This document shows positions 19,469-37,337 of a DNA stretch of 64,000 bases, in pieces. The DNA is from Patescibacteria group bacterium. Lineage in GTDB: Bacteria; Patescibacteriota; Minisyncoccia; GCA-002772825. The position numbers were made by a program, and so were the translations under genes. Every line of letters begins with the position of its first letter. The first letter of the stretch is position 1. The stretch is from NCBI GenBank assembly GCA_024654625.1, contig JANLHB010000016.1, forward strand, positions 128,137 through 192,136, written 5' to 3'. Below the pieces are notes generated by a model. It did not search any database, was not told the DNA's origin, and worked only from the letters and a program-made list of their open reading frames with translations.

Positions 19469-20974
19469 TTATTTTACACCTTTTTCTGATTTTCTTCTTT
19501 CTACAACGAAATCATAGGTTTTTTTGAACTCATAGGCGTTAAGGATTTTTTCTGCGTCTGGCTTCGCACCGATTTGTCGTTCGATCATCCACTCCGATTG
19601 CGGGTTCAGTTTAAGATAGTCGTTCACCTTTGCGCTTTCTACATGTGTAATTTGAAGGTAGTATTTTGAGCTGTCGTTTTGATCTTGATTTTCAATTTTT
19701 ACGAAATCTCTCTGTTTGAGAAAATTATACCGGCCATCAAGTTCATAGAGGGCAAAAAAACTTTCATTGCCATGTTTCAACATATTGAAATCCTGATCGC
19801 TTAGTGTTACCCCTTTTTTATCGTGAATTTTACCTATCGCAGGAGACGGAAATGATGCAGGAAATTTCTTCACTCGCTTGTACCCCTCAAGCGATAATTG
19901 GGAGTTTTCTCCTTTTTCTAAATACTCATAAGAACCCGTGAAAGGACCAAGGCGAGAATCAAAATCGACAAATATGTGCGGAAATTTGTGCCACTCATCA
20001 CCCTTGTCGTCTATGACGAGCATCTCGTCATAGCGGATCAAGCCATTTCTGATAAATGTTACTTGGTTGCGATGCGGCAAGTGATCCCAGAAGTCCTCGA
20101 TTTTTTCTCGTATTTTTTGTTGCTTCTCTTTCTCCTCTTGAGAATCGCTTTCCCGATAAATTAGATTGATTGCATCCGTAAAATCGTACTCTTTTTTTTC
20201 AGGGTCAACATATGCAAAAAATCTATGCATATTCACAATTAATCCCAGCGGATAGTATGCAACTGTTTTGTATTCGCGCCAGCGCGGGCGTTCTTTAAAA
20301 TCTTTATACTCATTTTGATATGGATATTTTGCATCCTTTGAATCTCGCAAAAGAACCGATCTGTGAAGTTTGCCTTCATCGCCAAAAATCCTATAGAGCT
20401 TATTTTTATTGCTGACGATTTGCCGTATTTCAGTAGCTCGGGATCGTCTTCTACTAACTAAGGAAATGCCAAAAAAAGTGAAGAGGATGCGGTCGTTTTT
20501 GGGGAGATGAAGCATGTCTTCCAGCTCTGCTTTACCCCAGAGATAGAATTCCATAACCCCTTTCTTTCGGAGCTCTTCGCGGAAAATATCATATGATTCT
20601 TTTGAAAAGTTTGCCGAAGCGGCAAGTATATATCCGTATGGCGGATTTTTAGGATCGGCATCGGAAATGATTTCTTTTACTTGCTTGGGACCGATTTCTT
20701 TTTCTCTCTTACCTTGAATCATCCATAAATTACCTGCCATAGGATGCACCTCTTCCGAGTTCTCGTCCTCGCTTTCTATCGGTGAAGCTTTATAGGTTTT
20801 TTCGTAAGCGCGAATATCAAATCCGCTATCATTACCGCTCCTTCCAGTTGCCTCAATCGTCTGCCAATCCTTATAGTCGTAAATCAGTTCCCGAATCAAA
20901 TCTTCAAAACGATGAGGGTCTAAATCCTCAAAGTGAATAGGTCCGTATGTTCGTGTGACTTTGGATTTAGCCAT
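19469..20974 (-). CDS. Mrr-catalytic-domain (PD-(D/E)xK restriction-endonuclease-like) N-terminus fused to an uncharacterised ~370-aa C-terminal region. Candidate defence nuclease.
   Basis: The N-terminus HRFEDLIRELIYDYKDWQTIEATGRSGNDSGFDIRAY...WMIQGKREK...YILAASANFSKESYDIF matches the Mrr_cat pattern FE.lv..ll...G......gDgGiD...vQcK. Confidence 0.6.
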   Translation of the reverse strand: MAKSKVTRTYGPIHFEDLDPHRFEDLIRELIYDYKDWQTIEATGRSGNDSGFDIRAYEKTYKASPIESEDENSEEVHPMAGNLWMIQGKREKEIGPKQVKEIISDADPKNPPYGYILAASANFSKESYDIFREELRKKGVMEFYLWGKAELEDMLHLPKNDRILFTFFGISLVSRRRSRATEIRQIVSNKNKLYRIFGDEGKLHRSVLLRDSKDAKYPYQNEYKDFKERPRWREYKTVAYYPLGLIVNMHRFFAYVDPEKKEYDFTDAINLIYRESDSQEEKEKQQKIREKIEDFWDHLPHRNQVTFIRNGLIRYDEMLVIDDKGDEWHKFPHIFVDFDSRLGPFTGSYEYLEKGENSQLSLEGYKRVKKFPASFPSPAIGKIHDKKGVTLSDQDFNMLKHGNESFFALYELDGRYNFLKQRDFVKIENQDQNDSSKYYLQITHVESAKVNDYLKLNPQSEWMIERQIGAKPDAEKILNAYEFKKTYDFVVERRKSEKGVK

Positions 20975-21032: not shown

Positions 21033-22754
21033 TTATTCCAATTTCTGCATGAAATTATTAATCTCATCAGCGATTGCTTTTCTGCGCCATCCCAAAAATT
21101 CTCTGAAGTTTGCTATCTCCCAAAGTTTTCTGTCCAAAGTGATCAGCTGAAGCTTTATTGCTTCTTCGCCTTTTTTAGCAATGATTTCCTTTTCAAGATA
21201 AACAGAGGGTTCTTTGTTGAGAATTTGTCTGTTCGTCTTGCCGCCAATGAAAGCAAAATTTGCGATCTCGTTAATTTCTTTCTTGTCATAACCGAATTTT
21301 GGTTCACGCAAAAGAGATTTTGGAAAGATGTGATGATACTGGATAGTATGCGCCCGGCCCGTGTGCTTCTCGGAAAGTTTCAAACCAGAAAACCAATCCT
21401 TGGCGCCATTATGCTTTAATACGAAATAAAGCATTGAGAAAAATGGACTTCGGATGCCTCTATTAACAAGATCGTCCAGATCAACAACGAATTTTTTGAC
21501 ATGCAGATGTAGCTGATTAATAAGATCATCGAGATTCTTATTTTTGAATAAGAGAGACAGGTCGGCTTCCAAAATAGATTCAGACGATCCCATGCTGTAG
21601 TGTCCGCGCATGTGAGCGAGATAAAACCAGCGCAGAAGTTTTTTCTGTTCTTCCGGGGTTAGCTTCTCGTCGCGCAGTGTCGCATAGACGGCAATCGGGA
21701 TCAGTAAGAAAGGAGATGAAAGATAACTAAGATTGTCTATGCCGGCATTGCTTCTTAAGAAGTTGATAGCAAAGCGCAAGCCGTTTGTGGCAAGCTTCCA
21801 AGAGTCGCCCAGTTTCTCTTTGCTGATTTTACCAACTGTCTTGAATCTGCTTTGATGTGTGGCGAACACCACGAGCATGCGAACGGGCAGACCAGTTTCT
21901 ACAATGTAATCCTCGTCATCCTTAAACTCGGCCGCAAAATCTTCAATAAGACCCATGAACCCCTTCCACCGAGATGTGATCTGGGCTAAGGCCAGATCAG
22001 AACCACGCAATTTGATACCAAGAGAATTGACACGCACGAAAATCTCCGTGACTTCTTCATACGACATGCTTTTTTCAAGCACCTGCATGACATACTGATA
22101 GTCGGAGATCGTTTTGACCTTTTGCAATCTGGCCGAATACTTTTTATAGCGCGGATCTTGTAAGGATGTGATGCCGACTTTTTCGAGTATTTCGCTGAAA
22201 TCTTTTTTGAAAATATCCGATACTGGGACCCAGAGTGGATCGTTTTGCAATGCACGGCTTGCCACTACAAAAGTTCTCTTTCTCATCTCTTCTTGAATAT
22301 CGCGCTCTGCGGTTTCTTCGTCCTCAACATCTTCCAAATCAGCGGTGAAGTCGCCATTATTTTCGTCTACTTCTGTGATTTCTACCGGCGGACCCTCGGG
22401 GTGCTCTAAATTAAAAAGAATGTCGATTGGCCGCTTGCGGTTTCTGACATGAACTGGCTCGCCACCCAAGACCGCAGATAAGGAGGTGATTCTTTGCTGA
22501 CCATCGAGTAGTAATATTTTTTGGGAAATCGTAGGAGTTCTTGTGGCTTGCACGGCAAGTTCTCGTGTCTCAATTTCTTCGTCAGTTTCCCAAACCAAAA
22601 TAGTCCCCGAGGGATACCCGCGATAGAGGGAGTCGAGAAGATCGCGCACTCGGGTTGCTGGCCAGACATACCGGCGTTGCATCTCGGGGAGAGTGAGCTC
22701 GCCGCGCTGAACCTTATCGACTAATTCACGAACTGATATATCTGTTTTTGGCAT
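21033..22754 (-). CDS. GmrSD-family type IV restriction enzyme (DUF262 ParB-like NTPase domain plus DUF1524 His-Me finger nuclease)
   Basis: N-terminal LPEMQRRYVWPATRVRDLLDSLYRGYPSGTILVW and the LLLDGQQRITSL (DGQQR) signature of DUF262. C-terminal TIQYHHIFPKSLL matches the DUF1524 HxxP motif. Confidence 0.8.
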   Translation of the reverse strand: MPKTDISVRELVDKVQRGELTLPEMQRRYVWPATRVRDLLDSLYRGYPSGTILVWETDEEIETRELAVQATRTPTISQKILLLDGQQRITSLSAVLGGEPVHVRNRKRPIDILFNLEHPEGPPVEITEVDENNGDFTADLEDVEDEETAERDIQEEMRKRTFVVASRALQNDPLWVPVSDIFKKDFSEILEKVGITSLQDPRYKKYSARLQKVKTISDYQYVMQVLEKSMSYEEVTEIFVRVNSLGIKLRGSDLALAQITSRWKGFMGLIEDFAAEFKDDEDYIVETGLPVRMLVVFATHQSRFKTVGKISKEKLGDSWKLATNGLRFAINFLRSNAGIDNLSYLSSPFLLIPIAVYATLRDEKLTPEEQKKLLRWFYLAHMRGHYSMGSSESILEADLSLLFKNKNLDDLINQLHLHVKKFVVDLDDLVNRGIRSPFFSMLYFVLKHNGAKDWFSGLKLSEKHTGRAHTIQYHHIFPKSLLREPKFGYDKKEINEIANFAFIGGKTNRQILNKEPSVYLEKEIIAKKGEEAIKLQLITLDRKLWEIANFREFLGWRRKAIADEINNFMQKLE

Positions 22755-23089: not shown

Positions 23090-25210
23090 ATGAAAAATTT
23101 AAATAAATACGATATAGAATTTCTGATCGAGTGTTTAAAAAGCGGCAAGGAAATCCCAACAGAATATAAGTACGCGCTTTTTCCAACCAAGCAAAAAGAA
23201 TACGAGCTTGTTTATGCCGGGAAAATGCGAAAAGAGGATGTGCTGGCAGACACCGAGGAAGCCAAGCCAGTGCCGCTCCAAATCGAAAAAGTTTTTAATG
23301 GCAAGAAATATCCACTTTACTCCAAAGATTGGCACAACCTTTTGGTTTTTGGCGATAATCTTCAAATCCTTAAAACCTTTAATGAGAATAAGGACCTGCT
23401 CGTCAAAAATAAAATTAAGGGGAAAGTAAAACTGATTTATATTGATCCGCCATTTGCAACGGAAGATGATTTCAGAGGAAATGGTGGAGCGAAAGCATAT
23501 TCTGACAAAGCAAAAGGTGCTGAATTTGTTGAATTTTTGCGCCGCCGCTTAATAGTAGCAAAGGAAGTGTTGGCAGATGACGGTACAATTTGGGTTCATT
23601 TGGATCATCGCAAAGCAGAATACATAAAAGTTTTAATGGATGAAATTTTTCCAAGTTGTTATCTTAATACAATTTATTGGCGTAGTCAGGTGGCAAGGGG
23701 CGCAAAAGTTAATGCTGAATTTTTACCAAAAAGTTGCCAACAGATTTTAGTTTACAAAAAGCGCACTGATGCAAAGCCCTTGTGGGAAGCACCCAAAAGG
23801 GAAATTATTTTGACGGAAGAAGAAATTAAACAAGAAGGCAGTTATAAACAAGACGAAAAAGGAAATTACTTTAGAACATCGGACCCGGGATCATATTCAT
23901 TTGAAAGCCTGCTTGACTTTTACAAGCAAGGTCGCATTTATGTGAGCTATGGCGGTAAAGTGATTTTTGATAACAAAAAAAAGGAAGTAAAAACGACAAA
24001 AGGGAAAATCGGCATAAAGTATTATGCTGAAGGTTTGGGCGGCGGAAAGTATAAAATTATAAGGTCAATCGATAATATTTGGACGGATATACCAGGACTT
24101 GGAACGGTGCCATCAGAAGATACTGGATATCCAACACAAAAAGTTGAAACTCTTTTAGAGAGGATCGTAAGTTCAACAACAAACACGGGCGATTTGGTAA
24201 TGGATTTCTTTTCCGGGAGTGGAACAACGGCAATAGTCGCCGAAAAATTAGGTAGGCGTTGGGTTGCCTGTGATATCGGGAAGTTATCAATCTACACAAT
24301 TCAAAAGCGATTATTAGAGATAGATCGGGGCCGAGATTTGATCGACTTAAAGAAAAAATATGGTAAGCCGGCAAAATCTTTCGCCATCGTTACTTCGGGG
24401 CTTTATGATCTTGGAAAGATTTTTGCTCTACAAAAAGATGAATATACTCGCTTCGTGAAAGATTTATTTGAAATTGAGGAAACGAAGGTTACAAAAATAG
24501 GTGGTGTCGAAATCGATGGGAAGAAGCGAGAATTTTACGCGAAAATCTTTCCATATTGGGAACTGAAAAATGCCAGCGTTGATGAAAAGTATTTGCAGGA
24601 ATTACATAAGAGCATTGGCGGGAAAATTGATGAAAGATTTTACATAATCGCTCCCGCGAACAATGTAAATTTTATCAGCGATTATCACCAGATTGGCAAT
24701 GTTCGGTATTATTTTCTCAAAGTACCGTACCAGATCATTAAAGAATTGCACAAGGTTCAGTTTAAGAAGTTTCGACAGCCACAAAGCAAAAGCCAAATCA
24801 ATGATTTGGACGAGGCAATTGGTTTTCACTTTATTCGTCAGCCAGAAGTAAAATCAGAGGTTAAAAAGTTGAAAGATAAAATCGTTTTGAAAATCAAAAG
24901 ATTTGAGTCCGCATATTCACAGGACGAAACCGGCGAAAAACTCAAAAACTTTGAAAGCTTGGCAATGTTGCTTTTGGATTTAAATTATGACGGCGAAAAG
25001 TTTATGATGACAAACTACTTTTTCGCACATGATTTGCTTAATCATAAGTCAAGCGATCAGGAAGAAAGCGAGGAAGAAATTAAAATGGAATTAAAGAAAC
25101 AAAAAGAAATTATCAAAGAATTTCCGAGAAAAGATTGCGGTAAAGAAATTATGGCAATTTATGTTGATATTTACGGTAATGAATTTCGGGAAGTTTTTAA
25201 GGTTAAATAA
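23090..25210 (+). CDS. mod: Type III restriction-modification Mod subunit (beta-class N6-adenine/N4-cytosine DNA methyltransferase)
   Basis: Motif IV, LIYIDPPF (DPPF), lies N-terminal to motif I, DFFSGSGTTAIVAEKLGRRWVACD (FxGxG). This order is the beta-class arrangement, and the res gene follows immediately. Confidence 0.8.
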   Translation: MKNLNKYDIEFLIECLKSGKEIPTEYKYALFPTKQKEYELVYAGKMRKEDVLADTEEAKPVPLQIEKVFNGKKYPLYSKDWHNLLVFGDNLQILKTFNENKDLLVKNKIKGKVKLIYIDPPFATEDDFRGNGGAKAYSDKAKGAEFVEFLRRRLIVAKEVLADDGTIWVHLDHRKAEYIKVLMDEIFPSCYLNTIYWRSQVARGAKVNAEFLPKSCQQILVYKKRTDAKPLWEAPKREIILTEEEIKQEGSYKQDEKGNYFRTSDPGSYSFESLLDFYKQGRIYVSYGGKVIFDNKKKEVKTTKGKIGIKYYAEGLGGGKYKIIRSIDNIWTDIPGLGTVPSEDTGYPTQKVETLLERIVSSTTNTGDLVMDFFSGSGTTAIVAEKLGRRWVACDIGKLSIYTIQKRLLEIDRGRDLIDLKKKYGKPAKSFAIVTSGLYDLGKIFALQKDEYTRFVKDLFEIEETKVTKIGGVEIDGKKREFYAKIFPYWELKNASVDEKYLQELHKSIGGKIDERFYIIAPANNVNFISDYHQIGNVRYYFLKVPYQIIKELHKVQFKKFRQPQSKSQINDLDEAIGFHFIRQPEVKSEVKKLKDKIVLKIKRFESAYSQDETGEKLKNFESLAMLLLDLNYDGEKFMMTNYFFAHDLLNHKSSDQEESEEEIKMELKKQKEIIKEFPRKDCGKEIMAIYVDIYGNEFREVFKVK

Positions 25211-25215
25211 ACGCT

Positions 25216-27762
25216 ATGACAGAAGGCATTAAAATATACAAAACACAGGACTTGGTTTTGCAAGTGAAGCAAAATTATAATCCCGCCAAGCTCAATTTGA
25301 AAAAATGGGTTGATTTTATTGATGTACTTTGCGGCGATAGAGAGTTTCAAAAAGAAGCGATCAGGGATTCGGTTATTTTTCTTGCGTCTGGAGAATATAA
25401 CTCAATCGAAAGTTTAATTGAGGAAAACTTTAGAAAGAACGATGAACTACAGAAAAGATATAAAGATGTCCGTGACTATCAAAGAAATTTGCCATTACCC
25501 CATAAGCTTTCGGCTGTGATTGATTTGGCGACAGGGACAGGCAAAAGCTATGTTATTTATGGTATTGCGCAAATCGCGTTAGGACTTGGCTTGGTTGATA
25601 AGGTTCTGGTGCTTTGCCCATCGCTCACTATTGAGTCGGGCTTAAAAGAAAAGTTTGAGAAGCTTTCCGGGGATGACAAGATAAAGGCGACATTACCAGA
25701 TAATACCGTTTTCAAAAATCCGAGAATTATTGATGCAAACAGCACAATTAAAAATGGCGACATTTGCGTTGAAAATATCCATGCCGTTTATGAGCGGACC
25801 GGCTCATCAATAAATGACAGTTTGAAGAAAAACGGGGAGCGCGTTTTGGTTTTGAACGATGAAGTTCATCATGCCTACAATTCATCAAGCGAGCAGGATA
25901 TAAAAAAATGGAAAGCGTTTTTGCTGAGTCCCGATTTTAATTTCAAATATATTCTCGGTTTTACCGGCACGGCTTATATTGAAGATGAGTATTTTAATGA
26001 TGTTATTTATCGCTACTCAATCCGCGAAGCTGTCGATGATAAAGTAATCAAGTCGGTTGATTATGTTGCGAAAGACGAGAATATAGACAAAAACGAGAAA
26101 TTCCAAAAGATTTATGACAATCATGATGAATTTGTAAAAAAGTACCGGCTTATCAAGCCACTTACGATTTTAGTTACAAAAGATATTTCCAAAGCAAAAA
26201 CACTTCGGGAAGATTTGATTGACTTTTTGGAAAAGCGGGAAAAAATATCGCGCAAGGCGGTTGAAAAAAAGGTTTTGATTGTTACTTCGCATAAAGATCA
26301 CAAGAAAAATGTTTTGGAATTGAAAAATGTTGACGATAAGGATAATTCAGTTGAGTGGATTGTTTCCGTTTCTATGCTTACCGAGGGCTGGGATGTAAAA
26401 AATATTTTTCAAATCGTACCATGGGAGGATCGCGCTTTTAATTCAAAACTTTTAATTGCTCAGGTTTTAGGCCGAGGTCTGCGTATACCAGAAGAATATA
26501 AATCACCCCAGCCGAAGGTTAGGGTTTTCAATCATGACGCTTGGAGTCGGAACATTCGCGGCTTGGTTGATGAAATTTTAGAAATGGAAGTCCGTCTAAC
26601 GAGTGAGGTTTTAACTTCTGGAGATCGGGCGAAATATCACTTTGATTTATACACGATTGACTATGAAAAGCAGGAAAAGGCCGTTAAGGCGGAGAAAGAT
26701 ACGGAAGTTTTTGATTACTCGAAGGGGTATATAAATTTAGTTGCTCAAGTCGAACAGATAGAAAGAGAAACTGAATATGAGGATTTGAGTGGCGTTATCA
26801 AGTCAAAAACAACGGCGATTCAAAAAGAAGTTTTTGGTGTTGACGATGTGGTGGCCAAGATCGTTGAAACTTTCGAGACGAGAGATTTTGAGGCAAAACT
26901 TAGATTTCCAAAGGGTGAATACGAAAAAGAACACTTGCCGCCAGAGAATGAAATAAAAGAGATCGTCATAACCTCAATGCGGAAAGTCGGGATAAAAAGC
27001 GGGGTGTTGACAGAAGATAATGCAAACAGAATCTTCAAAGCGTTTCAAACCCTTTTCAGAGCAAGGGGATCGACAATTGTTTTGGAACGAACAGCAAACA
27101 AGCCGAAGTTAATCGGCACGAAACAACTTGAAAAAGAAAATGTTGCCGTTGGAGCGATCAAACACGGCTCGACGGTTTTCTATACCGAAAATTTCAAAGA
27201 CGAGTGTAAAAATGGAATGATCGATACCTTGCAAGACATAATCAGCGATGAAAATCTGCCGAGAAGCGCAAGCAAAGAAGTTAATCCTTATTGCTTCAAA
27301 ACGCCAGTCAATGTCGTTTTGACAAAACTTGAACCCGAAAGAAGATTTGTTGAAACTTTAGTCAGTCCTCACTTGTGCGAGAAGTTAGATGCTTGGATAA
27401 AATCCCGTGATATGGGATTTTACAGCGTTGAGTATTCGTGGAGAAAAGGTGAGCACCCAACTCAGGGGAGTTTTAACCCCGATTTCTTTATTAGGATTGG
27501 TGAAAAAATCGTTGTTGTTGAAATAAAATCTGACGGTGATGATTCGGATGAAAACAAGGCAAAATATCGTTGGGCGAAAAAACATTTTGAGGACTTAAAT
27601 AGTGAGTTGGCGGCCGCAAAAATCAAACAAAAATACTTTTTCCATTTCTTAAGCCCATCAAGCTATGTCGAATTTACAGAATACTTGTTCGATGGCAGAT
27701 TATTCAAGGGAGAATTTAGATCGGCACTTGAAGATTTGCTTGAAAAAAATCATAGTGAATAA
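25216..27762 (+). CDS. res: Type III restriction enzyme Res subunit (SF2 helicase plus C-terminal PD-(D/E)xK endonuclease)
   Basis: Helicase motif I DLATGTGKSYV, motif II LNDEVHHA (DEVH) and arginine-finger region AQVLGRGLR. C-terminal nuclease NPDFFIRIGEKIVVVEIKSD. Confidence 0.8.
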   Translation: MTEGIKIYKTQDLVLQVKQNYNPAKLNLKKWVDFIDVLCGDREFQKEAIRDSVIFLASGEYNSIESLIEENFRKNDELQKRYKDVRDYQRNLPLPHKLSAVIDLATGTGKSYVIYGIAQIALGLGLVDKVLVLCPSLTIESGLKEKFEKLSGDDKIKATLPDNTVFKNPRIIDANSTIKNGDICVENIHAVYERTGSSINDSLKKNGERVLVLNDEVHHAYNSSSEQDIKKWKAFLLSPDFNFKYILGFTGTAYIEDEYFNDVIYRYSIREAVDDKVIKSVDYVAKDENIDKNEKFQKIYDNHDEFVKKYRLIKPLTILVTKDISKAKTLREDLIDFLEKREKISRKAVEKKVLIVTSHKDHKKNVLELKNVDDKDNSVEWIVSVSMLTEGWDVKNIFQIVPWEDRAFNSKLLIAQVLGRGLRIPEEYKSPQPKVRVFNHDAWSRNIRGLVDEILEMEVRLTSEVLTSGDRAKYHFDLYTIDYEKQEKAVKAEKDTEVFDYSKGYINLVAQVEQIERETEYEDLSGVIKSKTTAIQKEVFGVDDVVAKIVETFETRDFEAKLRFPKGEYEKEHLPPENEIKEIVITSMRKVGIKSGVLTEDNANRIFKAFQTLFRARGSTIVLERTANKPKLIGTKQLEKENVAVGAIKHGSTVFYTENFKDECKNGMIDTLQDIISDENLPRSASKEVNPYCFKTPVNVVLTKLEPERRFVETLVSPHLCEKLDAWIKSRDMGFYSVEYSWRKGEHPTQGSFNPDFFIRIGEKIVVVEIKSDGDDSDENKAKYRWAKKHFEDLNSELAAAKIKQKYFFHFLSPSSYVEFTEYLFDGRLFKGEFRSALEDLLEKNHSE

Positions 27763-27785
27763 CGATCTCAAGAAAATCTGCTCTT

Positions 27786-27815
27786 AAAAAATAATGCCCG
27801 GGAGGGCATTATTTC
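27786..27815. terminator. Bidirectional intrinsic terminator (AATAATGCCC-GGGA-GGGCATTATT) between res (+) and a convergent small gene (-)
   Basis: Perfect 10-bp inverted repeat flanked by an A-run on the 5' side and a T-containing tract on the 3' side. Confidence 0.55.
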
Positions 27816-28042
27816 GTCTGGTGGGGAGTGTCGGTCCGATTGAGCCATTCCTGAAATTCTGCCTTTCTTTCTGGCGTTCCAGAGCGACCCAAAGAATTAA
27901 AAAGAGATTGAGCTTCGTTCTTGCTCGCACCCTTGAGTATTCCGGCGATCCATTTGAGATTTTTCTCGCCTTCAAGGTAAGAACGAAGGGAGTTTTTGAC
28001 CCAACGACTTCCCGCCTCTTGTAATGAGATGTTTCTCGACAT
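27809..28042 (-). CDS. Small hypothetical protein (77 aa), divergent from the XRE gene
   Basis: ORF with ordinary composition sharing a 160-nt divergent intergenic region with the XRE HTH gene. The alternative overlapping ORF 27784-28080 looks spurious. Confidence 0.35.
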   Translation of the reverse strand: MSRNISLQEAGSRWVKNSLRSYLEGEKNLKWIAGILKGASKNEAQSLFNSLGRSGTPERKAEFQEWLNRTDTPHQTK

Positions 28043-28133
28043 AGTAAAGCTACCTTAGCATTTTTTTGTTTTTTTATCAACTTGATAGACGGAATTTGAC
28101 AATGTGGGCAACCTATTGACTTTTATTTAGTGA

Positions 28134-28186
28134 GGTAGTACCATTGGGGTAGTATTACCGAATTGAGGTCATTTTGTAGTACAATC
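28134..28186 (+). promoter_or_regulatory. Candidate operator/promoter: three GTAGTA-containing repeats (GGTAGTA at 28134 and 28148, TGTAGTACAAT at 28176) with a TACAAT -10-like box 18 nt upstream of the XRE start
   Basis: Direct repeats read off the sequence in the 160-nt divergent intergenic region. Confidence 0.3.
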
Positions 28187-28203
28187 GTAAACAACACATT
28201 TTT

Positions 28204-28417: not shown

Positions 28418-28948
28418 ATGCAATTTTTTAATATTTTCACCACGATCAGCCCTCAAGCGATAGAAGTCGCGCTCCTTTCGGTCGTGGCTATTTTATTAAT
28501 AGGGGTGATCCTGTCGATCAGCAAACTCACTACTGGATTTTTGAAAGCACTAACTCACCTGCGTGATAGCTTCCGAGAGGAAATACGATTCTCCATCCAA
28601 CCAAAAGTTATTGAGATGTCTTTAAGCGTGGAATCATTAGTTGAACTCGCCGTAGAGGTTTGGAGAATAGAGCAACGATTGGCAAAAGTTACTTCAGGAC
28701 TTACCGATATCCAGAAGAAAGGGCTTGAGAGTTCGGTCCAAAAGCTGAAGCGATACTTGGAAAAATACGATTTAGAAATCCGAGATTATACCAATCAAAA
28801 ATTCAACGAAGGCCTGAATTTGGATATTTTGTCAGTAGAAAAGGACCCGACAATTACCGAGCCGATAGTCAAAGAGACGGTTGAGCCAACGATCATGTGC
28901 AAAGGTCAGGTCGTGAAAAAAGCCAAAATCATACTCTTGAGCAATTAA
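28418..28948 (+). CDS. Membrane-anchored GrpE-like nucleotide-exchange-factor homologue
   Basis: N-terminal transmembrane segment (ALLSVVAILLIGVILSI) and a long helix. KGLESSVQKLKRYLEKYDLEIRDYTNQKFNEGLNLDI resembles the GrpE core motif G[VL]E..x.K.L...LEK.GVE.ID..G..FDPNLHEA. The terminal CKGQVVKKAKIILL resembles the GrpE C-terminus (GY.l.drvLRpAkV.V). Confidence 0.55.
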   Translation: MQFFNIFTTISPQAIEVALLSVVAILLIGVILSISKLTTGFLKALTHLRDSFREEIRFSIQPKVIEMSLSVESLVELAVEVWRIEQRLAKVTSGLTDIQKKGLESSVQKLKRYLEKYDLEIRDYTNQKFNEGLNLDILSVEKDPTITEPIVKETVEPTIMCKGQVVKKAKIILLSN

Positions 28949-28952
28949 ACCT

Positions 28953-31469
28953 ATGTCAAAACACAACGCGCAAAACATTCAAATCGGCATCGATTTGGGG
29001 ACGACAAACTCCGAGATCGCCATTAATAATAACGGCAATGTTGAGCTGGTGAAAAATGTCTTCGGAGACGAATATACCCCGTCCGTTTTTGGAATTGATA
29101 AAGCGAAAAACAAGGTGGTTGGAAAAAGAGCATACGAGAGGTTGTACAAGGATGCTTCGGAGGATGAATTTTCAAATAACAAAGCAGAGGTAAAGCGTTT
29201 AATGGGAACTTCGGAAACTGTACGCTTCCCGAGGATCAATCAAGAAATGACCCCTGAGGAAATCTCGGCGGAAATATTAAAGAGCCTCAAGGAAGATGTA
29301 TTGAGAAAGTACCCCGATTTTGAGACACGGACCGCCGTGATCACCATCCCGGCGTATTTTTCTACTCTGCAGGCAGAGGCGACCAAGAGAGCCGGCAATC
29401 TGGCGGGATTTGAGTATGCGGTATTGCTTCAAGAACCGATAGCGGCCGCAATGGCCTACGGGTTCATGAATGCGAAAAATGAGAACTGGATCATTTATGA
29501 TCTTGGCGGCGGTACTTTCGATGTCGCGCTTATCTCGTCAAAGGACGGAGCATTGTCAGTGCTTGGCCATAATGGCGATAACTTTTTAGGGGGAAAGGAT
29601 TTTGACTGGCTGATCGTGGACAAAGTTATCGTCCCCGCAATTTTAGAAAAACACGAAATAAAAGATTTCAATCGTGGCAATTCAAAATACAGAAGCGTGT
29701 TCGCAAAGCTGAAGTATATTGCCGAGAACGCGAAAATGTATTTGTCTCAATACGAAAAAACAAACCTTGAAATAGAGGGAATCGGAGATGATGACGATAG
29801 TAACGAAATTTATGTAACCGCTGAAATGACCCGTAAAGGATTTGAGCAACTCATAAAGCCGATGGTTGACCGAACAGTTGAGCTCGCTAAAGAGACAATC
29901 CAAGAGTCCGGGGTCAAACAATCGACTATTCACAAGATCATATTAGTAGGCGGTCCGACCCAAATCCCTTACATTAAAGACCGCTTGAATCGAGAATTTA
30001 AAATTACAGTCGATGCATCCGTAGACCCCTTGACGGTGGTTGCCCGCGGCGCATGCATATTTGCCGTCAGTCAGCGAATCCCCAAAGAATTCCTCAAGGA
30101 AAAGAAAGTGGCCGCTGGCGTGAAAACGCTGACGCTGAACTACGAATCGCTCACATCGGAAGAAGAAGTAACTGTGAGCGGTGTAGTCGAGCAACTGAAA
30201 AATTCAGATGATGAATATTATATTCAAATCCAAAGCGAGAGTGGATTCTATAGCGGATCGAAAATTAAGTTGAAGGGCGGCAAATTCTTCGACACGATTG
30301 CACTCGAACCGCACAAGACCAGCCTCTTCTGGGTTTACTTATTTGATAAGGATGGAAACTCTGTGCAAGTTGATCCCGATTCTTTCTCCATCACTCATGG
30401 ACTTTCCGTAACCGGCGCACCAATACCGCACTCTATCGGTGTTGCCGTAGCAAAAAGAGATATGAGCAGTGGCTTTGCTCTTACTGAAATGTTTGAGCCG
30501 TTCTTCGAAAAAAACAGCGTTCTGCCCCTACGGACCACCAAAACATATAAGACGGTAAAGAGATTGAAAAAGGGAGATACCGAAAATGCTTTGCCAATTA
30601 AGGTATACGAGGGAGAATCCGAAACACCAGACCGCAATCACATTATTTGCGACCTTAAGATCACGGGAGAAAATTTGCCGTATGACCTGCCAGACGGCAC
30701 CGAAGTGGAGATCAAGATAGAGGTCAATGAATCGAGAGAAGTAACGGTTGAAGCTTTTATTCCAACTATCGACTTATCTCTTAACGCGCGAGCCACAATC
30801 CACGCCGAAGATATTGATGTCAAGCAGATGGAGTCCGATCTCAATGCCCAACGGGAACGCATAAAAACCATTGAGGCGAACTGTACGGCGGAAGAAAAAG
30901 CAAAACTGGAAAACACTGTTCAATCAGTGAATACGAGCATAGGCAACGCCCACATCGATCAGGACGAAAAGCGGAAAGCGCACACACACCTGAAAGCTTT
31001 GAAAGTTAAGCTCGATCAGATCGAAAAAGCGAAAGAATTGCCGCAACTTACTAAAGAATTCAATGAGGGCATTGCTGATGTCCAGAAGGTCGTTGAAACA
31101 CTCGGCGATGAGAAAGAGAAGGGCATGAATAATGACCAGCTAAAAACGCTGAAAGAAGAAGGCGAAAGAGCTATCGAAAGTAAAGATAAATACTTACTCA
31201 TGCGAGTTAACGAACAGATCAAAGAGCTGGGCATACGGGTGGCATTGGCTAACCCGGCCATGTGGGTATACCACTTTGAGAAACTCACGACGGAAAACCA
31301 TGCTTTCCTAAGCGAGAAGGAGGCGAGCTATTACATTTCTAAAGGGAAACGCGCGATAGAACTGGGCGATGTCGATGAACTCAAGAGGTGCGTCCATAGT
31401 TTGATGCTTCTGCTCCCGCCAGAAGAACAGGAAGCGATCCGCGGCAATCTTTCCGGCATCACTCACTAA
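28953..31469 (+). CDS. Divergent Hsp70 (DnaK-family) paralogue of 838 aa, with an insertion between the nucleotide-binding and substrate-binding domains and an extended helical C-terminus
   Basis: IGIDLGTTNSEIAI (Hsp70 signature 1 region), DLGGGTFDVALI (signature 2) and ILVGGPTQIPYIKDRL (signature 3 region). A substrate-binding beta-domain-like stretch is IKVYEGESETPDRNHIICDLKITGENLPYDLPDGTEVEIKIEVNESREVTVEAF. About 150 extra residues separate the NBD and SBD. Confidence 0.85.
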   Translation: MSKHNAQNIQIGIDLGTTNSEIAINNNGNVELVKNVFGDEYTPSVFGIDKAKNKVVGKRAYERLYKDASEDEFSNNKAEVKRLMGTSETVRFPRINQEMTPEEISAEILKSLKEDVLRKYPDFETRTAVITIPAYFSTLQAEATKRAGNLAGFEYAVLLQEPIAAAMAYGFMNAKNENWIIYDLGGGTFDVALISSKDGALSVLGHNGDNFLGGKDFDWLIVDKVIVPAILEKHEIKDFNRGNSKYRSVFAKLKYIAENAKMYLSQYEKTNLEIEGIGDDDDSNEIYVTAEMTRKGFEQLIKPMVDRTVELAKETIQESGVKQSTIHKIILVGGPTQIPYIKDRLNREFKITVDASVDPLTVVARGACIFAVSQRIPKEFLKEKKVAAGVKTLTLNYESLTSEEEVTVSGVVEQLKNSDDEYYIQIQSESGFYSGSKIKLKGGKFFDTIALEPHKTSLFWVYLFDKDGNSVQVDPDSFSITHGLSVTGAPIPHSIGVAVAKRDMSSGFALTEMFEPFFEKNSVLPLRTTKTYKTVKRLKKGDTENALPIKVYEGESETPDRNHIICDLKITGENLPYDLPDGTEVEIKIEVNESREVTVEAFIPTIDLSLNARATIHAEDIDVKQMESDLNAQRERIKTIEANCTAEEKAKLENTVQSVNTSIGNAHIDQDEKRKAHTHLKALKVKLDQIEKAKELPQLTKEFNEGIADVQKVVETLGDEKEKGMNNDQLKTLKEEGERAIESKDKYLLMRVNEQIKELGIRVALANPAMWVYHFEKLTTENHAFLSEKEASYYISKGKRAIELGDVDELKRCVHSLMLLLPPEEQEAIRGNLSGITH

Positions 31470-31470
31470 T

Positions 31471-33105
31471 ATGCCCAAAACACTCAAAAACAATTCATAC
31501 CACATTCTGGGACTTGATACTTCTGTAAGCCAGAGGGATGTTTTGAAGCGATCAAAGGAAATTATCAATCGCCTCAAGATTGACGATTTACCAGTGTATG
31601 ATCTGGACTTGGATATTTTTGAGGATTTCCGAACGGAGGAGTCGGTAAAGGAAGCGGTCCAAAAATTATCCGCGCCCAAAAAGAGAATCAAAGAATATTT
31701 CTTCTGGTTTCAAATTGCGGATAGCGTTGACGAGCAAGCGGCCGGCCTTCTCAAGAGCAAGAATTATGCCGAAGCGAGCCGAGTTTGGGAGCACAACTCG
31801 GAGAAAGATACTGCGAAGTCGTTTCTATACAAAAAGAACCTTGCTATTTTGCACTGCCTGCTACTTTTCAAAAAGAACAGCAAAACAAATCTCACGCAAT
31901 CGATGAAGATTTGGAAAGAACTTCTTGACTCCGATAAGTTTTGGAACGCATTCGCCAAAGTATATAAGCTTCATGACGAACTTGGCACAAGCCAGGAGAT
32001 CATAGATGAGTTTAAATCAAACGCCATCTCTTATGTGGCGGATATTTATACTGAACTCGGGCATTTCCACAATGATAATTCGTATGTCGCGGAAAGCTCC
32101 AAGATTCTTGAAGCCAAAGGGGCGGCAACAGAAAAAACTGTCCTGAATCCAATCTATCAGAGCATCGCAGAGGTGGTGGATCAATTGGAATCGTTGAAGG
32201 TTAGCGAGGACGGGATGATTGATAAAAAGGAAGCGCAGACGATCAAGACGCTGATCGGGAAACTTCAAGGTGAGTTCAACAAGCTTATTGAGATAGGCCT
32301 GTACGAAGATAGCCAATCCAAAGCGATCAGGGATAGAGCCGCAAACGCCATTCGAGTCGTTGTGCTGGATTTGCATAATAATCTCAGCGAGACAGACAAG
32401 GCAATTGCATTAATGAATGTTGCATTAAAGATTTCCGGCACCGCCGGCCTTGAGTCAAAGGTAAAACATGATATCCGGGTACTCGAAGAAACAAAGAAAA
32501 ATGCTGGCCTTATTGCTCCTGTTGCCAATCTGGTAGCCGAAGAAAAATATGAAGAGGCGTTGAGACAGATTGAATCAGATAGGAAAAAGTTCAGTGGCAA
32601 TGCCGAATTGCAGGAATTTTACGATGGACAGAAAAAGCTCTGCATAAGCATGCTTGCACTAAATAAATACAAACAAGCCCGGGATTATTTTGATAAACAG
32701 CAAGAAGATAAAGCAAAGCCGTTATTTGATGAAGCGGGCAAGCTGATTCATGACAACATTAATCTCTTCAACTTTAATAATAAAGTTATTGACGAGATGG
32801 TTGAGGAGATTAAATCCAACATGGCAAAAGTGAATCTCAATAACTTGAGTCAATTTGACGAATACAGAAATTCTTACATCAATCTTGCGAAAGAAAAATT
32901 TGAGGGCCAGCTTGAGCAGGGAGCCTTTATCGTGCTGATCGACGCTCACATCTATGGCGGCTTAACTGGATTCATGAAAGGGGCGCGGCAAAAGAACAAT
33001 GTGGCCAATATTTTATATACCCTCGGATGGATAACTGTCTGGTTTTATGGGATCGGCCTGATTTTCTTCATAGCCGGCTGGGTTTACAAAAATCGAAATA
33101 CATAA
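31471..33105 (+). CDS. J-domain-like co-chaperone homologue lacking the HPD tripeptide, with a long helical region and two C-terminal transmembrane segments
   Basis: The N-terminus NSYHILGLDTSVSQRDVLKRSKEIINRLKIDD aligns with J-domain helices I-II (Y.iLGv....s..ei.kaYrkl..k.HPD), but IDD replaces HPD. The C-terminus (ILYTLGWITVWFYGIGLIFFIAGWVY) is hydrophobic. Confidence 0.5.
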   Translation: MPKTLKNNSYHILGLDTSVSQRDVLKRSKEIINRLKIDDLPVYDLDLDIFEDFRTEESVKEAVQKLSAPKKRIKEYFFWFQIADSVDEQAAGLLKSKNYAEASRVWEHNSEKDTAKSFLYKKNLAILHCLLLFKKNSKTNLTQSMKIWKELLDSDKFWNAFAKVYKLHDELGTSQEIIDEFKSNAISYVADIYTELGHFHNDNSYVAESSKILEAKGAATEKTVLNPIYQSIAEVVDQLESLKVSEDGMIDKKEAQTIKTLIGKLQGEFNKLIEIGLYEDSQSKAIRDRAANAIRVVVLDLHNNLSETDKAIALMNVALKISGTAGLESKVKHDIRVLEETKKNAGLIAPVANLVAEEKYEEALRQIESDRKKFSGNAELQEFYDGQKKLCISMLALNKYKQARDYFDKQQEDKAKPLFDEAGKLIHDNINLFNFNNKVIDEMVEEIKSNMAKVNLNNLSQFDEYRNSYINLAKEKFEGQLEQGAFIVLIDAHIYGGLTGFMKGARQKNNVANILYTLGWITVWFYGIGLIFFIAGWVYKNRNT

Positions 33106-33109
33106 ATTT

Positions 33110-33808
33110 ATGTCTGACAAAGAACGATTAAAATTTGATCTTGATTTTTTAGAGAAAGAACAGGAAAAACCTGCCGATGCAAAGCCGGCAGAGGTTCACA
33201 AACCGGCCGAGACGACCGGCGAGAAGTTACCCCTTATCGAATACATAAAAGCGATTTTTAAGGACTTCCCGGCATTTTGCAATAAATATCTTCGGGTAAA
33301 AAATCCGCCCTATCTGTTCTTTATTATCTGGGCTGTTGGAGTGGCAACTGCTATTGATCGAATGAGCGACTACGGGGGCAGTACTTGGCTCGAAGTTTGG
33401 GCTATCGTTTTAATCGGTGGACTCGTAGCGGGGTATTTGCAATATTGGATCGGTGGCGCAATTTATCACTTGCGGGTCAAGTGGTCGAAAGGCGGCGACA
33501 ATTATGATGCATCCAGAAACATCAATATGTTTTCTGGGATACCAGTTGCGATCGCCAGCATTGGCTCCTTACTTCTGAATACAATTGTTTATGGGAATGA
33601 TTACTTTAAATCCGGCGAGGGCAATTCTTTGGATATACTGTTCTTCTTTGTAATAGTCACCGCGATAGCATACTCCATTCGATTAAGCTACAAAGGAGTC
33701 ATGTTTATTCAGCAAACAGAGAAAACCAGAGCCATGATTTGGTTTGTCGTATTGCCGGCAATTTTCTATGTTTTGATATTTTCGGCCGCAATTTTTAATA
33801 AACTATGA
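33110..33808 (+). CDS. Polytopic membrane protein (Yip1-like topology) with the N-terminal MSDKERLKFDLDFLEKE motif
   Basis: 232 aa with four to five predicted transmembrane helices after a charged N-terminus. The N-terminal peptide is shared with the next gene. Confidence 0.55.
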   Translation: MSDKERLKFDLDFLEKEQEKPADAKPAEVHKPAETTGEKLPLIEYIKAIFKDFPAFCNKYLRVKNPPYLFFIIWAVGVATAIDRMSDYGGSTWLEVWAIVLIGGLVAGYLQYWIGGAIYHLRVKWSKGGDNYDASRNINMFSGIPVAIASIGSLLLNTIVYGNDYFKSGEGNSLDILFFFVIVTAIAYSIRLSYKGVMFIQQTEKTRAMIWFVVLPAIFYVLIFSAAIFNKL

Positions 33809-34416
33809 GCGATAAAGATAAAAAGTTAGATTTTGATCTGAGGTTTCTGGACGAGGAATCGCCTAAACCGAAACAAGCGATTCGAAAGGATCGCGCAAAA
33901 CCACAATCAGAGACCGCCAGCTCAATTAACTGGAATTGGAAAACAATATCGATAATTGCCGGCGTAATCATAGTGATAATTTGGATCGCTTCTTCGGAAG
34001 ATAGCACTACGCCAACATCAACTTATACGCCGCCGAGCACTAATCAAGTCAGAAACATATCTGCCGATGACGATAGTGTTGAATACGGAGAATATAGATG
34101 CTCGCGATACCATTATGATAAAGCTGTTGCGCTGTCTCCGAGCGAAAGCGAGCAAACCTTAAATAGCGCACAATTTTCTATGGATACTCGAGCCAGCGAA
34201 TTGGAGCGATTGCAAAGAGAAATCGAGTACAGTGATGTCAACGATTATTCGTCACAATGGGAAATCGATGACTACAACGAAAAAGTAAATACATATAATT
34301 ACAAACTCACTTCTTACAAACGAGATGCCACTGCACTTGACTCTCGCATCGATAGGTTTAATGCTCAAGTAGCGGTCCACAATAATTATCTCACTCAAAA
34401 TTGCACACCAAGATAA
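33805..34416 (+). CDS. Single-pass membrane protein with an extracytoplasmic domain and the N-terminal MSDKDKKLDFDLRFLDEE motif
   Basis: 203 aa with one transmembrane segment (ISIIAGVIIVIIWIA). The start overlaps the upstream stop (ATGA), and it shares the N-terminal motif with 33110-33808. Confidence 0.55.
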   Translation: MSDKDKKLDFDLRFLDEESPKPKQAIRKDRAKPQSETASSINWNWKTISIIAGVIIVIIWIASSEDSTTPTSTYTPPSTNQVRNISADDDSVEYGEYRCSRYHYDKAVALSPSESEQTLNSAQFSMDTRASELERLQREIEYSDVNDYSSQWEIDDYNEKVNTYNYKLTSYKRDATALDSRIDRFNAQVAVHNNYLTQNCTPR

Positions 34417-35501: not shown

Positions 35502-35810
35502 TTAAACCTTTTTGAGCGATTTGAAAAATACCGCCGCCACTACCAAATCAACAACCGACCAAAGGAAGTGACCAAAGTAAAATGGATTGATTGGGTTAAA
35601 GATAATTGCGACAACTATCATGACCCACATCCATTTTTTATTTTTATCTAAATGAAAGGTATACGCAGAGTAAGCCGCAGTGCCGAAAATCAAAAATTTC
35701 AAGAGCTGATAAAAAAAATACGGCCAGATTGGAATCATCGCGATCAACAGCGCTACGGCCGATAGTTTGGAGAATAAGTTTTTATAGTGTGTCTGTTCGG
35801 CGGTTATCAT
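35502..35810 (-). CDS. Small polytopic membrane protein
   Basis: 102 aa with three hydrophobic helices. It is convergent with the AAA gene. Confidence 0.45.
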   Translation of the reverse strand: MITAEQTHYKNLFSKLSAVALLIAMIPIWPYFFYQLLKFLIFGTAAYSAYTFHLDKNKKWMWVMIVVAIIFNPINPFYFGHFLWSVVDLVVAAVFFKSLKKV

Positions 35811-36317: not shown

Positions 36318-37337
36318 ATGCAATTTAAAGAAGCAATCGATCAATTTTCTAACTGGCGCAGGTTTAAGGTCAAAGTTCAGACCGTAAAAGGTTACGATCA
36401 GACACTGAGACAATTCTGCCTCTACCTTCGAAACCCCCAGATCGAGGACATATCAATCCATCATGTCATGGACTATTTGAATGGCATGAAAGAACTGGGA
36501 TGGGACCAAAATAGCTTTGTCGGGAAGTGCATGGCTCTGCGCAAGTTCTTTGAATTTTATCGACTTCAGAACTATGCAGTTCTCGATGAGAACCTGATTC
36601 CGATACCCAGCAAAGAACATAAACTTCCAAGGGTTGCAAAAGAGGCGGATTATAGGCAACTGATTGCCGCCATACCCGTAAAGACCACCGATCCTCGTCA
36701 TATCCGAAACTTAGCCATCGTGAATTTGTTATGGGACACCGGCGCGAGAAACGGAGAGGTGCTTGCATTAGATGTAGATGATCTGGACATGGAGAGACGC
36801 CGAGCGGTTATCAATACTGAGAAATCAAAAGGAAGGCGGCCGTTTCGGGAATTATTCTGGACACAATCAACCAACGACAGTATATGGGCTTGGTTGAAAA
36901 AAAGAGAACACCTAAAAAAGACAATGGCGTTCAAGGAACCAGATGCTCTCTTTCTCTCGATATGCGCCGGCCAGCACGATACGACAGGCAGACGATTCAC
37001 TATCCGAGGAGTCGGTGAAATGTTGAGGCGTTATTCAAACAGAGCTAAGTTGCCCTACTTGAACGCTCATAGTTTTCGACACCATATGGGTCACCACATT
37101 ATAAAGAGCGGCGGATCAAGCGCCGATGTGATGAATATACTTGGCCACTCGTCGGTCCAGAGCTCGACAATTTACACGATGATGACTGATCACGAATTGG
37201 AAAAGAGATATCGAGGATTCATGAACGATACTCCGACAAAAGAAAGAGCAGAGAGGATAGAGAGAGCAGAAAGAGTTGCGAGAGTCGAAAACTCCGTAGA
37301 GAAATTTGCGAGACCCGTCGTCCCGTTGCCAGATTAA
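36318..37337 (+). CDS. Tyrosine recombinase (XerC/XerD-like phage integrase family)
   Basis: SAM-like N-terminal core-binding domain. Catalytic residues: WDTGARNGE (Arg), HSFRHHMGHH (H-x-x-R) and LGHSSVQSSTIYT (Tyr). Confidence 0.85.
   Translation: MQFKEAIDQFSNWRRFKVKVQTVKGYDQTLRQFCLYLRNPQIEDISIHHVMDYLNGMKELGWDQNSFVGKCMALRKFFEFYRLQNYAVLDENLIPIPSKEHKLPRVAKEADYRQLIAAIPVKTTDPRHIRNLAIVNLLWDTGARNGEVLALDVDDLDMERRRAVINTEKSKGRRPFRELFWTQSTNDSIWAWLKKREHLKKTMAFKEPDALFLSICAGQHDTTGRRFTIRGVGEMLRRYSNRAKLPYLNAHSFRHHMGHHIIKSGGSSADVMNILGHSSVQSSTIYTMMTDHELEKRYRGFMNDTPTKERAERIERAERVARVENSVEKFARPVVPLPD

Follow-up and report, generated by a model that had tools for sequence, protein, structure and literature searches.

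We analysed a stretch of 64,000 nucleotides from a Patescibacteria group bacterium (contig JANLHB010000016.1 of assembly GCA_024654625.1), in the following called the window, and describe a gene at positions 28418-28948 that encodes a member of the GrpE family with a predicted transmembrane (TM) helix at its N-terminus. The gene directly precedes that of an Hsp70 paralogue of 838 amino acids (aa), and both are part of a cassette which additionally encodes a J-like protein with a predicted tail anchor, membrane proteins and an AAA+ ATPase. We propose that the GrpE-like protein serves this Hsp70 as a dedicated nucleotide exchange factor tethered to the membrane, within a specialised membrane-associated Hsp70/AAA+ machine, a reading to which we assign a probability of roughly 0.7.

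Results

A diverged member of the GrpE family

The open reading frame (ORF) runs on the plus strand from an ATG at 28418 to a TAA at 28946-28948 and codes for 176 aa; no overlap with a rival long ORF was found in the window. It is a real gene, and its product is a highly diverged GrpE-family member. This membership rests on profile matches at the level of the family and on the predicted fold. Searched on its own, the protein matched the Pfam profile PF01025 with residues 99-172, which correspond to model positions 90-162 of 165 (E 9.1e-4, 19.4 bits), and it gave no match to NCBIfam models. This single-sequence signal is suggestive of GrpE, short of conclusive. In a protein database clustered at 90% identity 440 relatives were found at E <= 1e-3, nearly all of them 165-185 aa long and derived from assemblies of Patescibacteria (Candidate Phyla Radiation). 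A precomputed assignment to PF01025 exists for many of these database entries, and in a few cases the source calls the protein 'nucleotide exchange factor GrpE' or 'molecular chaperone GrpE'. A search with the family profile among 1.84 billion cluster representatives (50% clustered) yielded 907 members at E <= 1e-3, including 244 at E <= 1e-10. For the family alignment we used 34 relatives with 50-97% identity, and PF01025 was matched by every one of them (34/34) at E <= 0.01, the best at 3.5e-9. The C-terminal ~125 residues of this alignment are strongly conserved with 33 invariant positions, and the most conserved part is the GrpE-homologous core, consisting of a helical hairpin and a beta domain. 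The N-terminal ~45 residues are variable in sequence and constant in hydrophobicity.

Since the sequence searches were too weak, a comparison of folds was needed. The AlphaFold2 (AF2) model computed on the family alignment reached a mean predicted local distance difference test score (pLDDT) of 80.4, with 87-91 in the C-terminal domain. It predicts a helix from residue 12 to 59 and, after a break of low confidence at 61-68, a helical hairpin (71-94/97-115) and a six-stranded C-terminal domain (119-175). In a Foldseek search of the PDB with this model, ranks 1-12 were all occupied by GrpE (9a81, 1dkg, 9bls, 4ani, 3a6m, 9blt and 8gb3) with probabilities of 0.99-1.00 and E-values down to 2.3e-5, and rank 13 fell to an E-value of 0.67. 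GrpE-DnaK complexes were among these matches (1dkg, 4ani, 8gb3 and 9bls), and the identity to the solved GrpE structures amounted to 10-18%. Both parts of the GrpE fold, namely a helical hairpin that forms half of the four-helix bundle of the dimer and a C-terminal beta domain, were recovered by AF2 and Foldseek. An earlier note on this DNA, whose quoted strings recur exactly in the translation, had claimed a C-terminal GrpE domain, and this claim stands, as the C-terminal two thirds of the protein belong to the GrpE family according to the PF01025 matches of the aligned relatives, the AF2 model and Foldseek. The note had also named a significant hit to the GrpE profile and a fold compatible with the GrpE beta domain as decisive. 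The predicted fold is compatible; the profile was matched by the protein and more clearly by its relatives, but the score of the protein itself stayed under the curated cut-off.

The predicted membrane anchor

Textbooks describe GrpE as a soluble protein. In the GrpE-like protein, residues 17-35 read VALLSVVAILLIGVILSIS, and their mean Kyte-Doolittle hydropathy is 2.87 over 19 residues. A hydrophobic segment occurs in 34/34 homologues, the sequence of the segment itself not being conserved. The prediction of a TM helix is based on this hydropathy, on its conservation and on the AF2 helix 12-59. Moreover, lysine and arginine (K+R) are unevenly distributed around the helix, as the 15 positions on its N-terminal side contain 0.35 on average and the 15 on its C-terminal side 3.4 (34 homologues). 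This charge pattern predicts an N-out/C-in anchor which would place the GrpE domain in the cytoplasm beside its ATP-dependent partners. In the wider family, at least one TM helix was predicted in 83 of the 103 full-length proteins found among the best 150 matches, and some proteins have four. Judged by these predictions, the anchor is a common but not obligatory state of the family.

A canonical GrpE is soluble and has a disordered tail and a paired stalk helix of ~50 residues. This architecture was not found here; in the GrpE-like protein the long stalk helix and the disordered tail are replaced by the TM helix and ~22 helical residues in front of the break at 61-68. An N-terminal TM helix, which the earlier note had pointed out as absent from canonical GrpE, is also predicted here and recurs across the family. 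The note had further placed the Hsp70 cycle at the membrane, and this is the natural reading of the adjacent Hsp70, the J-like protein with its predicted tail anchor and the further membrane proteins. What it had omitted is that the partner is an 838-aa Hsp70 paralogue and not DnaK, that the gene belongs to a mobile multi-gene cassette with an AAA+ protein, and that the Pfam score is below threshold.

The partner proteins

The AF2 model of the Hsp70 (pLDDT 77) comprises a nucleotide-binding domain (NBD, residues 1-372), the beta part of a substrate-binding domain (SBD, 495-614) and a lid (623-717). Two extra domains are predicted besides, a beta-rich one at ~393-482 (30129-30398) and a C-terminal helical one at 723-833 (31119-31451). 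The best Foldseek matches of the model are full-length bacterial DnaK structures, and with E. coli DnaK the protein shares 33% identity in its NBD. Residues D14, K81, E161, D183 and T188, which align to catalytic positions of DnaK, are invariant in 24 homologues, and the length of ~836-839 aa is remarkably constant in more than 100 homologues. Against the NCBIfam DnaK model the protein scored 282 bits, the cut-off being 648. Judged by its sequence, the Hsp70 appears to be an active enzyme of the DnaK type. According to a review of bacterial Hsp70 machines, the GrpE signature motif comprises DnaK residues 290-295 and is deleted in HscA, which is independent of an exchange factor. In the alignment of the cassette Hsp70 no deletion was seen opposite DnaK 276-302, and the loop opposite DnaK 28-34 has retained its length and a Gly-Asp.

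The J-like protein (31471-33105) was identified by profile comparison. With a profile of its N-terminal 110 residues (31471-31800), the 17 best PDB matches were all J-domains, at E-values of 0.027-1.2, none of which is individually significant, and hhalign against E. coli DnaJ gave an E-value of 1e-4. The Pfam DnaJ model gave no match at E <= 1, and no NCBIfam model matched the J-like protein either. The HPD motif required of a J-domain is missing from this protein; its position reads Y-[DE]-x-D in all ~45 orthologues, with only Y43 and D46 invariant. On the other side, the Hsp70 carries a Val at the position aligned to DnaK R167, which contacts the HPD aspartate. These residues suggest that the interface between the J-like protein and the Hsp70 was rewired on both sides.

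In a phmmer search of the PDB the AAA+ protein matched D2 domains from Cdc48, VAT and p97 with an E-value of ~1e-89, and its Walker A and B motifs are visible. Its ORF opens at a TTG (34401); the likely start is the ATG at 34422, which results in a protein of 359 aa in agreement with the homologues. Neither the Hsp70 nor the AAA+ protein has a hydrophobic N-terminus.

All proteins encoded between the J-like and the AAA genes start approximately with [KH]-L-[DN]-[IF]-D-L-[DE]-F-L-D-[KE] (short form LDxDLxFLD) and are otherwise unrelated, being Yip1-like, RDD-like or single-pass proteins of 200-350 aa. When the first 60 residues of 2,038 ORFs of the related loci and the window were scanned with a regular expression for this tag, 44/44 matches were located between the J-like and the AAA genes. 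The tag precedes the first TM helix and, on the predicted topology, should be cytoplasmic. It is probably a docking peptide, recognised by the SBD of the Hsp70, by the central helical region of the J-like protein or by the N-terminal region of the AAA+ protein. In cassettes of the Saccharibacteria type the genes for tagged membrane proteins are absent and the J-like protein is longer.

Organisation and distribution of the cassette

In the window, the GrpE-like gene is the second gene, and the first structural gene, of a compact plus-strand operon whose genes are -16 to +5 nt apart (Table 1). It starts 4 nt after the stop of a gene for a helix-turn-helix (HTH) regulator of the XRE type, and the Hsp70 gene starts 4 nt after its own stop. 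An XRE homologue is found upstream in about one third of the related loci, and a MerR/HTH_17 protein takes this place in locus L001. The usual place of the DUF6804 gene is behind the AAA gene and in the same orientation (L003 and L004); in the window it is inverted. In the ~440 bp between the restriction and HTH genes (27763-28203) we found neither a convincing ORF nor an Rfam match. A weak sigma-70-like site lies at 28116-28144 (+), and such sites are no commoner here than in shuffled sequence; likewise, promoters in a scan for promoters and terminators were no better than those in shuffled sequence. By base composition, the cassette is not marked off as a distinct island.

The order of the cassette is kept wherever the contig is long enough, both in four contexts found via identical proteins and in 48 loci of species genomes: GrpE-like protein, Hsp70 (~837 aa), J-like protein (~490-620 aa), zero to two membrane proteins and AAA protein (~359 aa). 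The distance from the GrpE stop to the Hsp70 start is between -20 and +18 nt in 44/48 loci, and the identity of the Hsp70 across loci is 49-89%. Linkage to an Hsp70 gene, as expected of a GrpE partnership, is thus conserved, the two genes being adjacent in all related loci.

The 48 loci were obtained with a strict-pattern scan of 185,579 species genomes. Hosts are mostly Patescibacteria (Saccharibacteria, Paceibacterota, Moraniibacteriota, Uhrbacteria, Gracilibacteria, Peregrinibacteria and Doudnabacteria). Other host labels include Omnitrophota, Elusimicrobium (Elusimicrobia), Bdellovibrionales and Woesearchaeota (a DPANN archaeon), some of which may be binning errors. A vertical and broad distribution, as it would be expected of a canonical GrpE, was not observed. 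Going by these sequence comparisons, the cassette is a horizontally spread, mobile and patchy accessory module, and the sparse distribution under the strict pattern makes a housekeeping role unlikely.

Table 1. Features of the window with their positions, strands and the basis of their assignment.
Feature	Position	Strand	Basis
SAM (S-adenosylmethionine) riboswitch	18649-18762	-	Rfam, 61 bits, above gathering score
LOOT RNA, full length	19109-19231	-	Rfam, 82.6 bits, above gathering score
Mrr-like nuclease	19469-20974	-	
GmrSD	21033-22754	-	
Type III methylase	23090-25210	+	
ResIII restriction subunit (type III pair with methylase)	25216-27762	+	
XRE-type HTH regulator, 69 aa	28204-28413	+	Pfam HTH_3 E 1.3e-16; PADLOC capH-like E 1.6e-14
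GrpE-family protein with predicted membrane anchor, 176 aa	28418-28948	+	Pfam, family alignment, AF2, Foldseek
Predicted TM helix, residues 17-35, N-out/C-cytoplasmic	28466-28522	+	Hydropathy, 34/34 homologues, K+R asymmetry, AF2
GrpE-homologous core, residues 71-176: helical hairpin (H71-94, H97-115) and C-terminal beta domain (119-175)	28628-28945	+	AF2, Foldseek, Pfam residues 99-172
Long Hsp70 paralogue, 838 aa	28953-31469	+	Pfam HSP70 E 1.3e-84
J-like protein with predicted tail anchor, 544 aa: N-terminal J-like domain without HPD, helical middle, TM 518-536	31471-33105	+	Profile, hhalign, hydropathy
Yip1-domain membrane protein, 232 aa, 4-5 TM helices, tag LKFDLDFLEKE	33110-33808	+	Pfam Yip1 E 2.7e-11
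Single-pass membrane protein, 203 aa, N-terminal tag KLDFDLRFLDEE	33805-34416	+	TM prediction, tag motif
Tag-encoding sites	33110-33150, 33805-33850	+	Counterparts in L001-L053
Single-ring classical AAA+ ATPase, Cdc48/p97/VAT D2-like	34401/34422-35501	+	Pfam AAA E 4.6e-35 and AAA_lid_3
DUF6804-like protein, small, 2 TM	35502-35810	-	tblastn with L004 protein: 66% identity, E 1.3e-36
Tyrosine integrase, just downstream of cassette	36318-37337		
IS200-like Y1 transposase, downstream of cassette	37687-38343		

Genomic neighbourhood

Just upstream of the cassette lies the type III restriction-modification pair, with GmrSD and Mrr beyond it. Among the 148 nearest ORFs in 39 loci, the commonest encode large serine recombinases (10) and S49/NfeD membrane proteases (5), besides DNA methylases, AbiEii, SNase and integrases. 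In L003, L012, L015, L017 and L020 the S49/NfeD genes recur a few positions beyond the AAA gene, which may point to a connection with proteolysis in certain variants; in the window, the annotated part beyond the cassette contained no such gene. A single IMG/VR contig carries the cassette, and immediately upstream of it a type IIG methylase, an OLD-type ATPase with a UvrD helicase (Gabija-like) and a Cas4-like nuclease are encoded. A phage origin was considered and rejected, as 50,697 phage records gave 0 matches and the IMG/VR contig had no virion genes among those scanned.

We searched PADLOC-DB v2 with the GrpE-like protein, the Hsp70, the J-like protein and the HTH regulator. No match was obtained for the GrpE-like and J-like proteins, and the Hsp70 gave marginal ones only (AbiLi E 0.034, Ppl E 0.088). 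The HTH regulator matched capH and control-protein models. A distant relative of the cassette is present on plasmid pHALHY02 of the cultured bacterium Haliscomenobacter hydrossis (NC_015512.1, 8539-16064; L057). Its J-like protein has the same N-terminal domain as that of the cassette (hhalign probability 97%, E 1.7e-10), and a 299-aa protein combines a TM helix with a weakly GrpE-like C-terminus (hhalign E 0.0027). This relative furthermore encodes an 841-aa Hsp70, a fusion of a protein kinase with an AAA domain and TerB, and it directly adjoins BREX genes (brxL, pglZ) and a 5-methylcytosine restriction component. On a Pseudomonas plasmid, the 117-aa protein encoded upstream of a related Hsp70 showed no convincing similarity to GrpE.

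Elsewhere in the window, the SAM riboswitch and the LOOT RNA lie ~350 nt apart on the minus strand. Three giant ORFs were found at 60-5690 (1876 aa), 10167-15893 (1908 aa) and 52037-59035 (2332 aa), and a PilM-like type IV pilus gene at 39003-40514. Giant ORFs and type IV pilus genes are common in Patescibacteria.

Discussion

Proposed mechanism and alternatives

We suggest that the GrpE-like protein is held in the membrane by its single N-terminal helix, with a stub of ~15 residues exposed on the outer side and the GrpE domain on the cytoplasmic side. There it would bind the NBD of the Hsp70 and open it, leading to release of ADP, in the same way as GrpE acts on DnaK, and the anchor would confine nucleotide exchange to the inner face of the membrane. 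Since both the GrpE-like and the J-like protein appear to be fixed in the membrane, the Hsp70 cycle as a whole would take place at this face. In such a cycle, the tail-anchored J-like protein would serve as a scaffold and deliver the ATP-bound Hsp70 to the tagged membrane proteins. The Hsp70 would clamp its client and would be reset by the anchored GrpE-like protein, and the soluble Cdc48-D2-like AAA+ ring would unfold or extract the client. Exchange activity, dimerisation, binding of the tag and the biological role of the cassette are what we infer here.

Several observations weigh against this proposal. The GrpE-like protein alone scores 19.4 bits against PF01025 and hence below the curated cut-off (gathering score) of 25.8. 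Moreover, neither phmmer with the protein nor hmmsearch with a hidden Markov model of the family retrieved any GrpE from the PDB sequences. In hhalign, the family and a single sequence of E. coli GrpE were aligned in register with a probability of 4%, which serves as a pointer only. In this weak alignment the near-invariant G102 of the family is placed at G122 of E. coli GrpE, the residue changed in the classical grpE280 allele. Because the sequence searches of the PDB failed and the hhalign result was weak, the family has to be regarded as highly diverged. As to the anchor, ~20% of the wider family have no TM helix, and a TM-less member occurs in the same core gene cluster. The predicted replacement of stalk and tail implies that regulation must differ from that of canonical GrpE, and perhaps dimerisation too. 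Besides, the Hsp70 has Y61/E62 and Y255 in a low-confidence region of its model at the positions of DnaK K55/R56 and E264, the salt-bridge residues of the nucleotide cleft in DnaK. Its sequence thus gives no proof that the Hsp70 depends on an exchange factor.

These last points lead to the main alternative, which we consider unlikely. In it the GrpE fold would be retained for docking only, so that the protein brings the Hsp70 to the membrane or keeps it there as a tether or adaptor and does not catalyse exchange. The missing canonical stalk would fit such a role, and with the cleft salt-bridge positions not conserved, intrinsic exchange of the Hsp70 may already be fast. Fast intrinsic exchange has been argued for HscA and HscC (review of bacterial Hsp70 machines). 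In addition, the loss of HPD in the J-like partner together with the Val at the DnaK R167 position suggests a rewired cycle. However, the beta domain and the hairpin, which contact the NBD in GrpE-DnaK structures, are precisely the part in which conservation is highest. Binding in the manner of GrpE opens the NBD, so that even a docked protein would itself promote nucleotide release.

Much less probable is that the protein is the housekeeping GrpE of a general DnaK system and that its hydrophobic N-terminus is a quirk of the lineage. The names given to some database relatives are those of ordinary GrpE, and no other GrpE or DnaK was found in the 64-kb window. Nevertheless, the partner differs from a canonical DnaK of ~600-640 aa by its length, its two extra domains and its score far under the cut-off of the DnaK model. 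The rarity of the cassette and its scatter over phyla, as well as its frequent proximity to serine recombinases, integrases and defence genes, are likewise at odds with a housekeeping function. Furthermore, tblastn with E. coli GrpE did not find the GrpE-like gene at E 1e-3. The GrpE-like protein is thus probably not a housekeeping GrpE.

Very improbable in our view is a cleavable signal peptide with export of the GrpE-like domain. Such a peptide would also show as a hydrophobic segment near the N-terminus, but the distribution of K+R around the helix is the reverse of that in a Sec signal peptide, the hydrophobic core of ~19-23 residues has the length of a TM helix, and the Hsp70 and AAA+ partners lack a hydrophobic N-terminus and need cytoplasmic ATP. 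Finally, a spurious ORF or a chance likeness to GrpE could be suspected from the single-sequence Pfam E-value of only 9e-4, yet the spurious-ORF reading is refuted by the 440 and 907 homologues, the conserved C-terminus and synteny and the fold matches to GrpE only, and we give this explanation hardly any weight.

Possible role of the cassette

The association of the cassette with defence and mobility genes is suggestive of a role in conflict or in mobile elements, as judged from the genes in its flanks. Tentatively, we consider that the cassette might be a conflict system not described before, directed against phages or connected with mobile elements, in which the membrane-tethered Hsp70 cycle and the unfoldase sense infection or control membrane effectors or sensors via the docking tag. 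Specialised remodelling or quality control of membrane proteins and other functions of mobile elements account for the remaining probability, with general proteostasis disfavoured.

In the literature on transmembrane GrpE, on combinations of Hsp70, AAA and defence and on DUF6804 neither the protein nor the cassette was found, subscription journals being thinly covered. Reviews of bacterial Hsp70 machines and GrpE-like factors name only DnaK, HscA and HscC as prokaryotic Hsp70s and neither a membrane-anchored GrpE nor a cassette of this kind. Homology to GrpE was already known from automatic annotation, and it is the anchored architecture and the machine around it that appear to be undescribed. 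As proposed here, the cassette would represent a fourth, mechanistically distinct prokaryotic Hsp70 machine and a bacterial counterpart of the membrane-tethered exchange factors of eukaryotes. Its parts can be tested, namely the docking tag, both anchored co-chaperones and the unfoldase, and through it a function may be assigned to part of the accessory genome of Patescibacteria, which is poorly understood. Should the conflict reading be true, it would be a chaperone-based defence mechanism.

Comparison with known systems

The closest comparison is the bacterial GrpE-DnaK pair as seen in E. coli (1dkg), Geobacillus (4ani) and M. tuberculosis (8gb3). Common to both are the fold of hairpin and beta domain, the PF01025 match and a position next to an Hsp70 gene whose product has an intact ATPase site and, in subdomain IIB, a loop like that of DnaK. 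In contrast, the protein described here is diverged, comprises 176 aa and has a predicted TM helix instead of the disordered tail and most of the stalk. It is encoded with a longer Hsp70 paralogue in a mobile accessory cassette and not in a heat-shock operon.

The HscC-DjlB/DjlC system of E. coli is similar in that a specialised, sporadic bacterial Hsp70 is combined with a J-protein tail-anchored in the plasma membrane. HscC, with a length of 550-580 aa, has no GrpE signature and is regarded as independent of an exchange factor, and HPD is intact in DjlB and DjlC; HscC has been suggested to act at the membrane on transmembrane clients (review of bacterial Hsp70 machines). The cassette differs by its 838-aa Hsp70, a GrpE-like protein of its own, a J-like protein without HPD and an AAA+ protein in the operon. 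It does not belong to the HscC system, of whose defining features it shares only the tail anchor.

In principle, the GrpE-like protein also resembles yeast Snl1, an Hsp70 exchange factor with a BAG domain that is fixed to a membrane by an N-terminal transmembrane segment, so that exchange takes place at the membrane surface. The anchoring of Snl1 in the membrane of the endoplasmic reticulum is described in PMC3962485. It is a eukaryotic protein encoded outside any Hsp70 operon, and its BAG domain is a helical bundle, in contrast to the GrpE fold.

The AAA domain of the cassette matches the D2 domain of Cdc48/p97/VAT and shares its Walker motifs. The cassette protein, however, has a single AAA domain preceded by an N-terminal region of ~100-130 residues and is 359 aa long, compared with ~740-840 aa in the enzymes with two rings.

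A precedent for a dedicated set of Hsp70, GrpE and J-domain protein in a predicted conflict neighbourhood exists in systems centred on a GAP1-N2 GTPase. Such Hsp70-GrpE-DnaJ sets were reported from Actinobacteria and Firmicutes, where they occur with FNIII-repeat proteins (Kaur et al. 2020, PMC7159879). Whereas those systems are built around the GTPase, the cassette described here has none, and its hallmarks are the Cdc48-like AAA+ protein, the anchored co-chaperones and the tagged membrane proteins.

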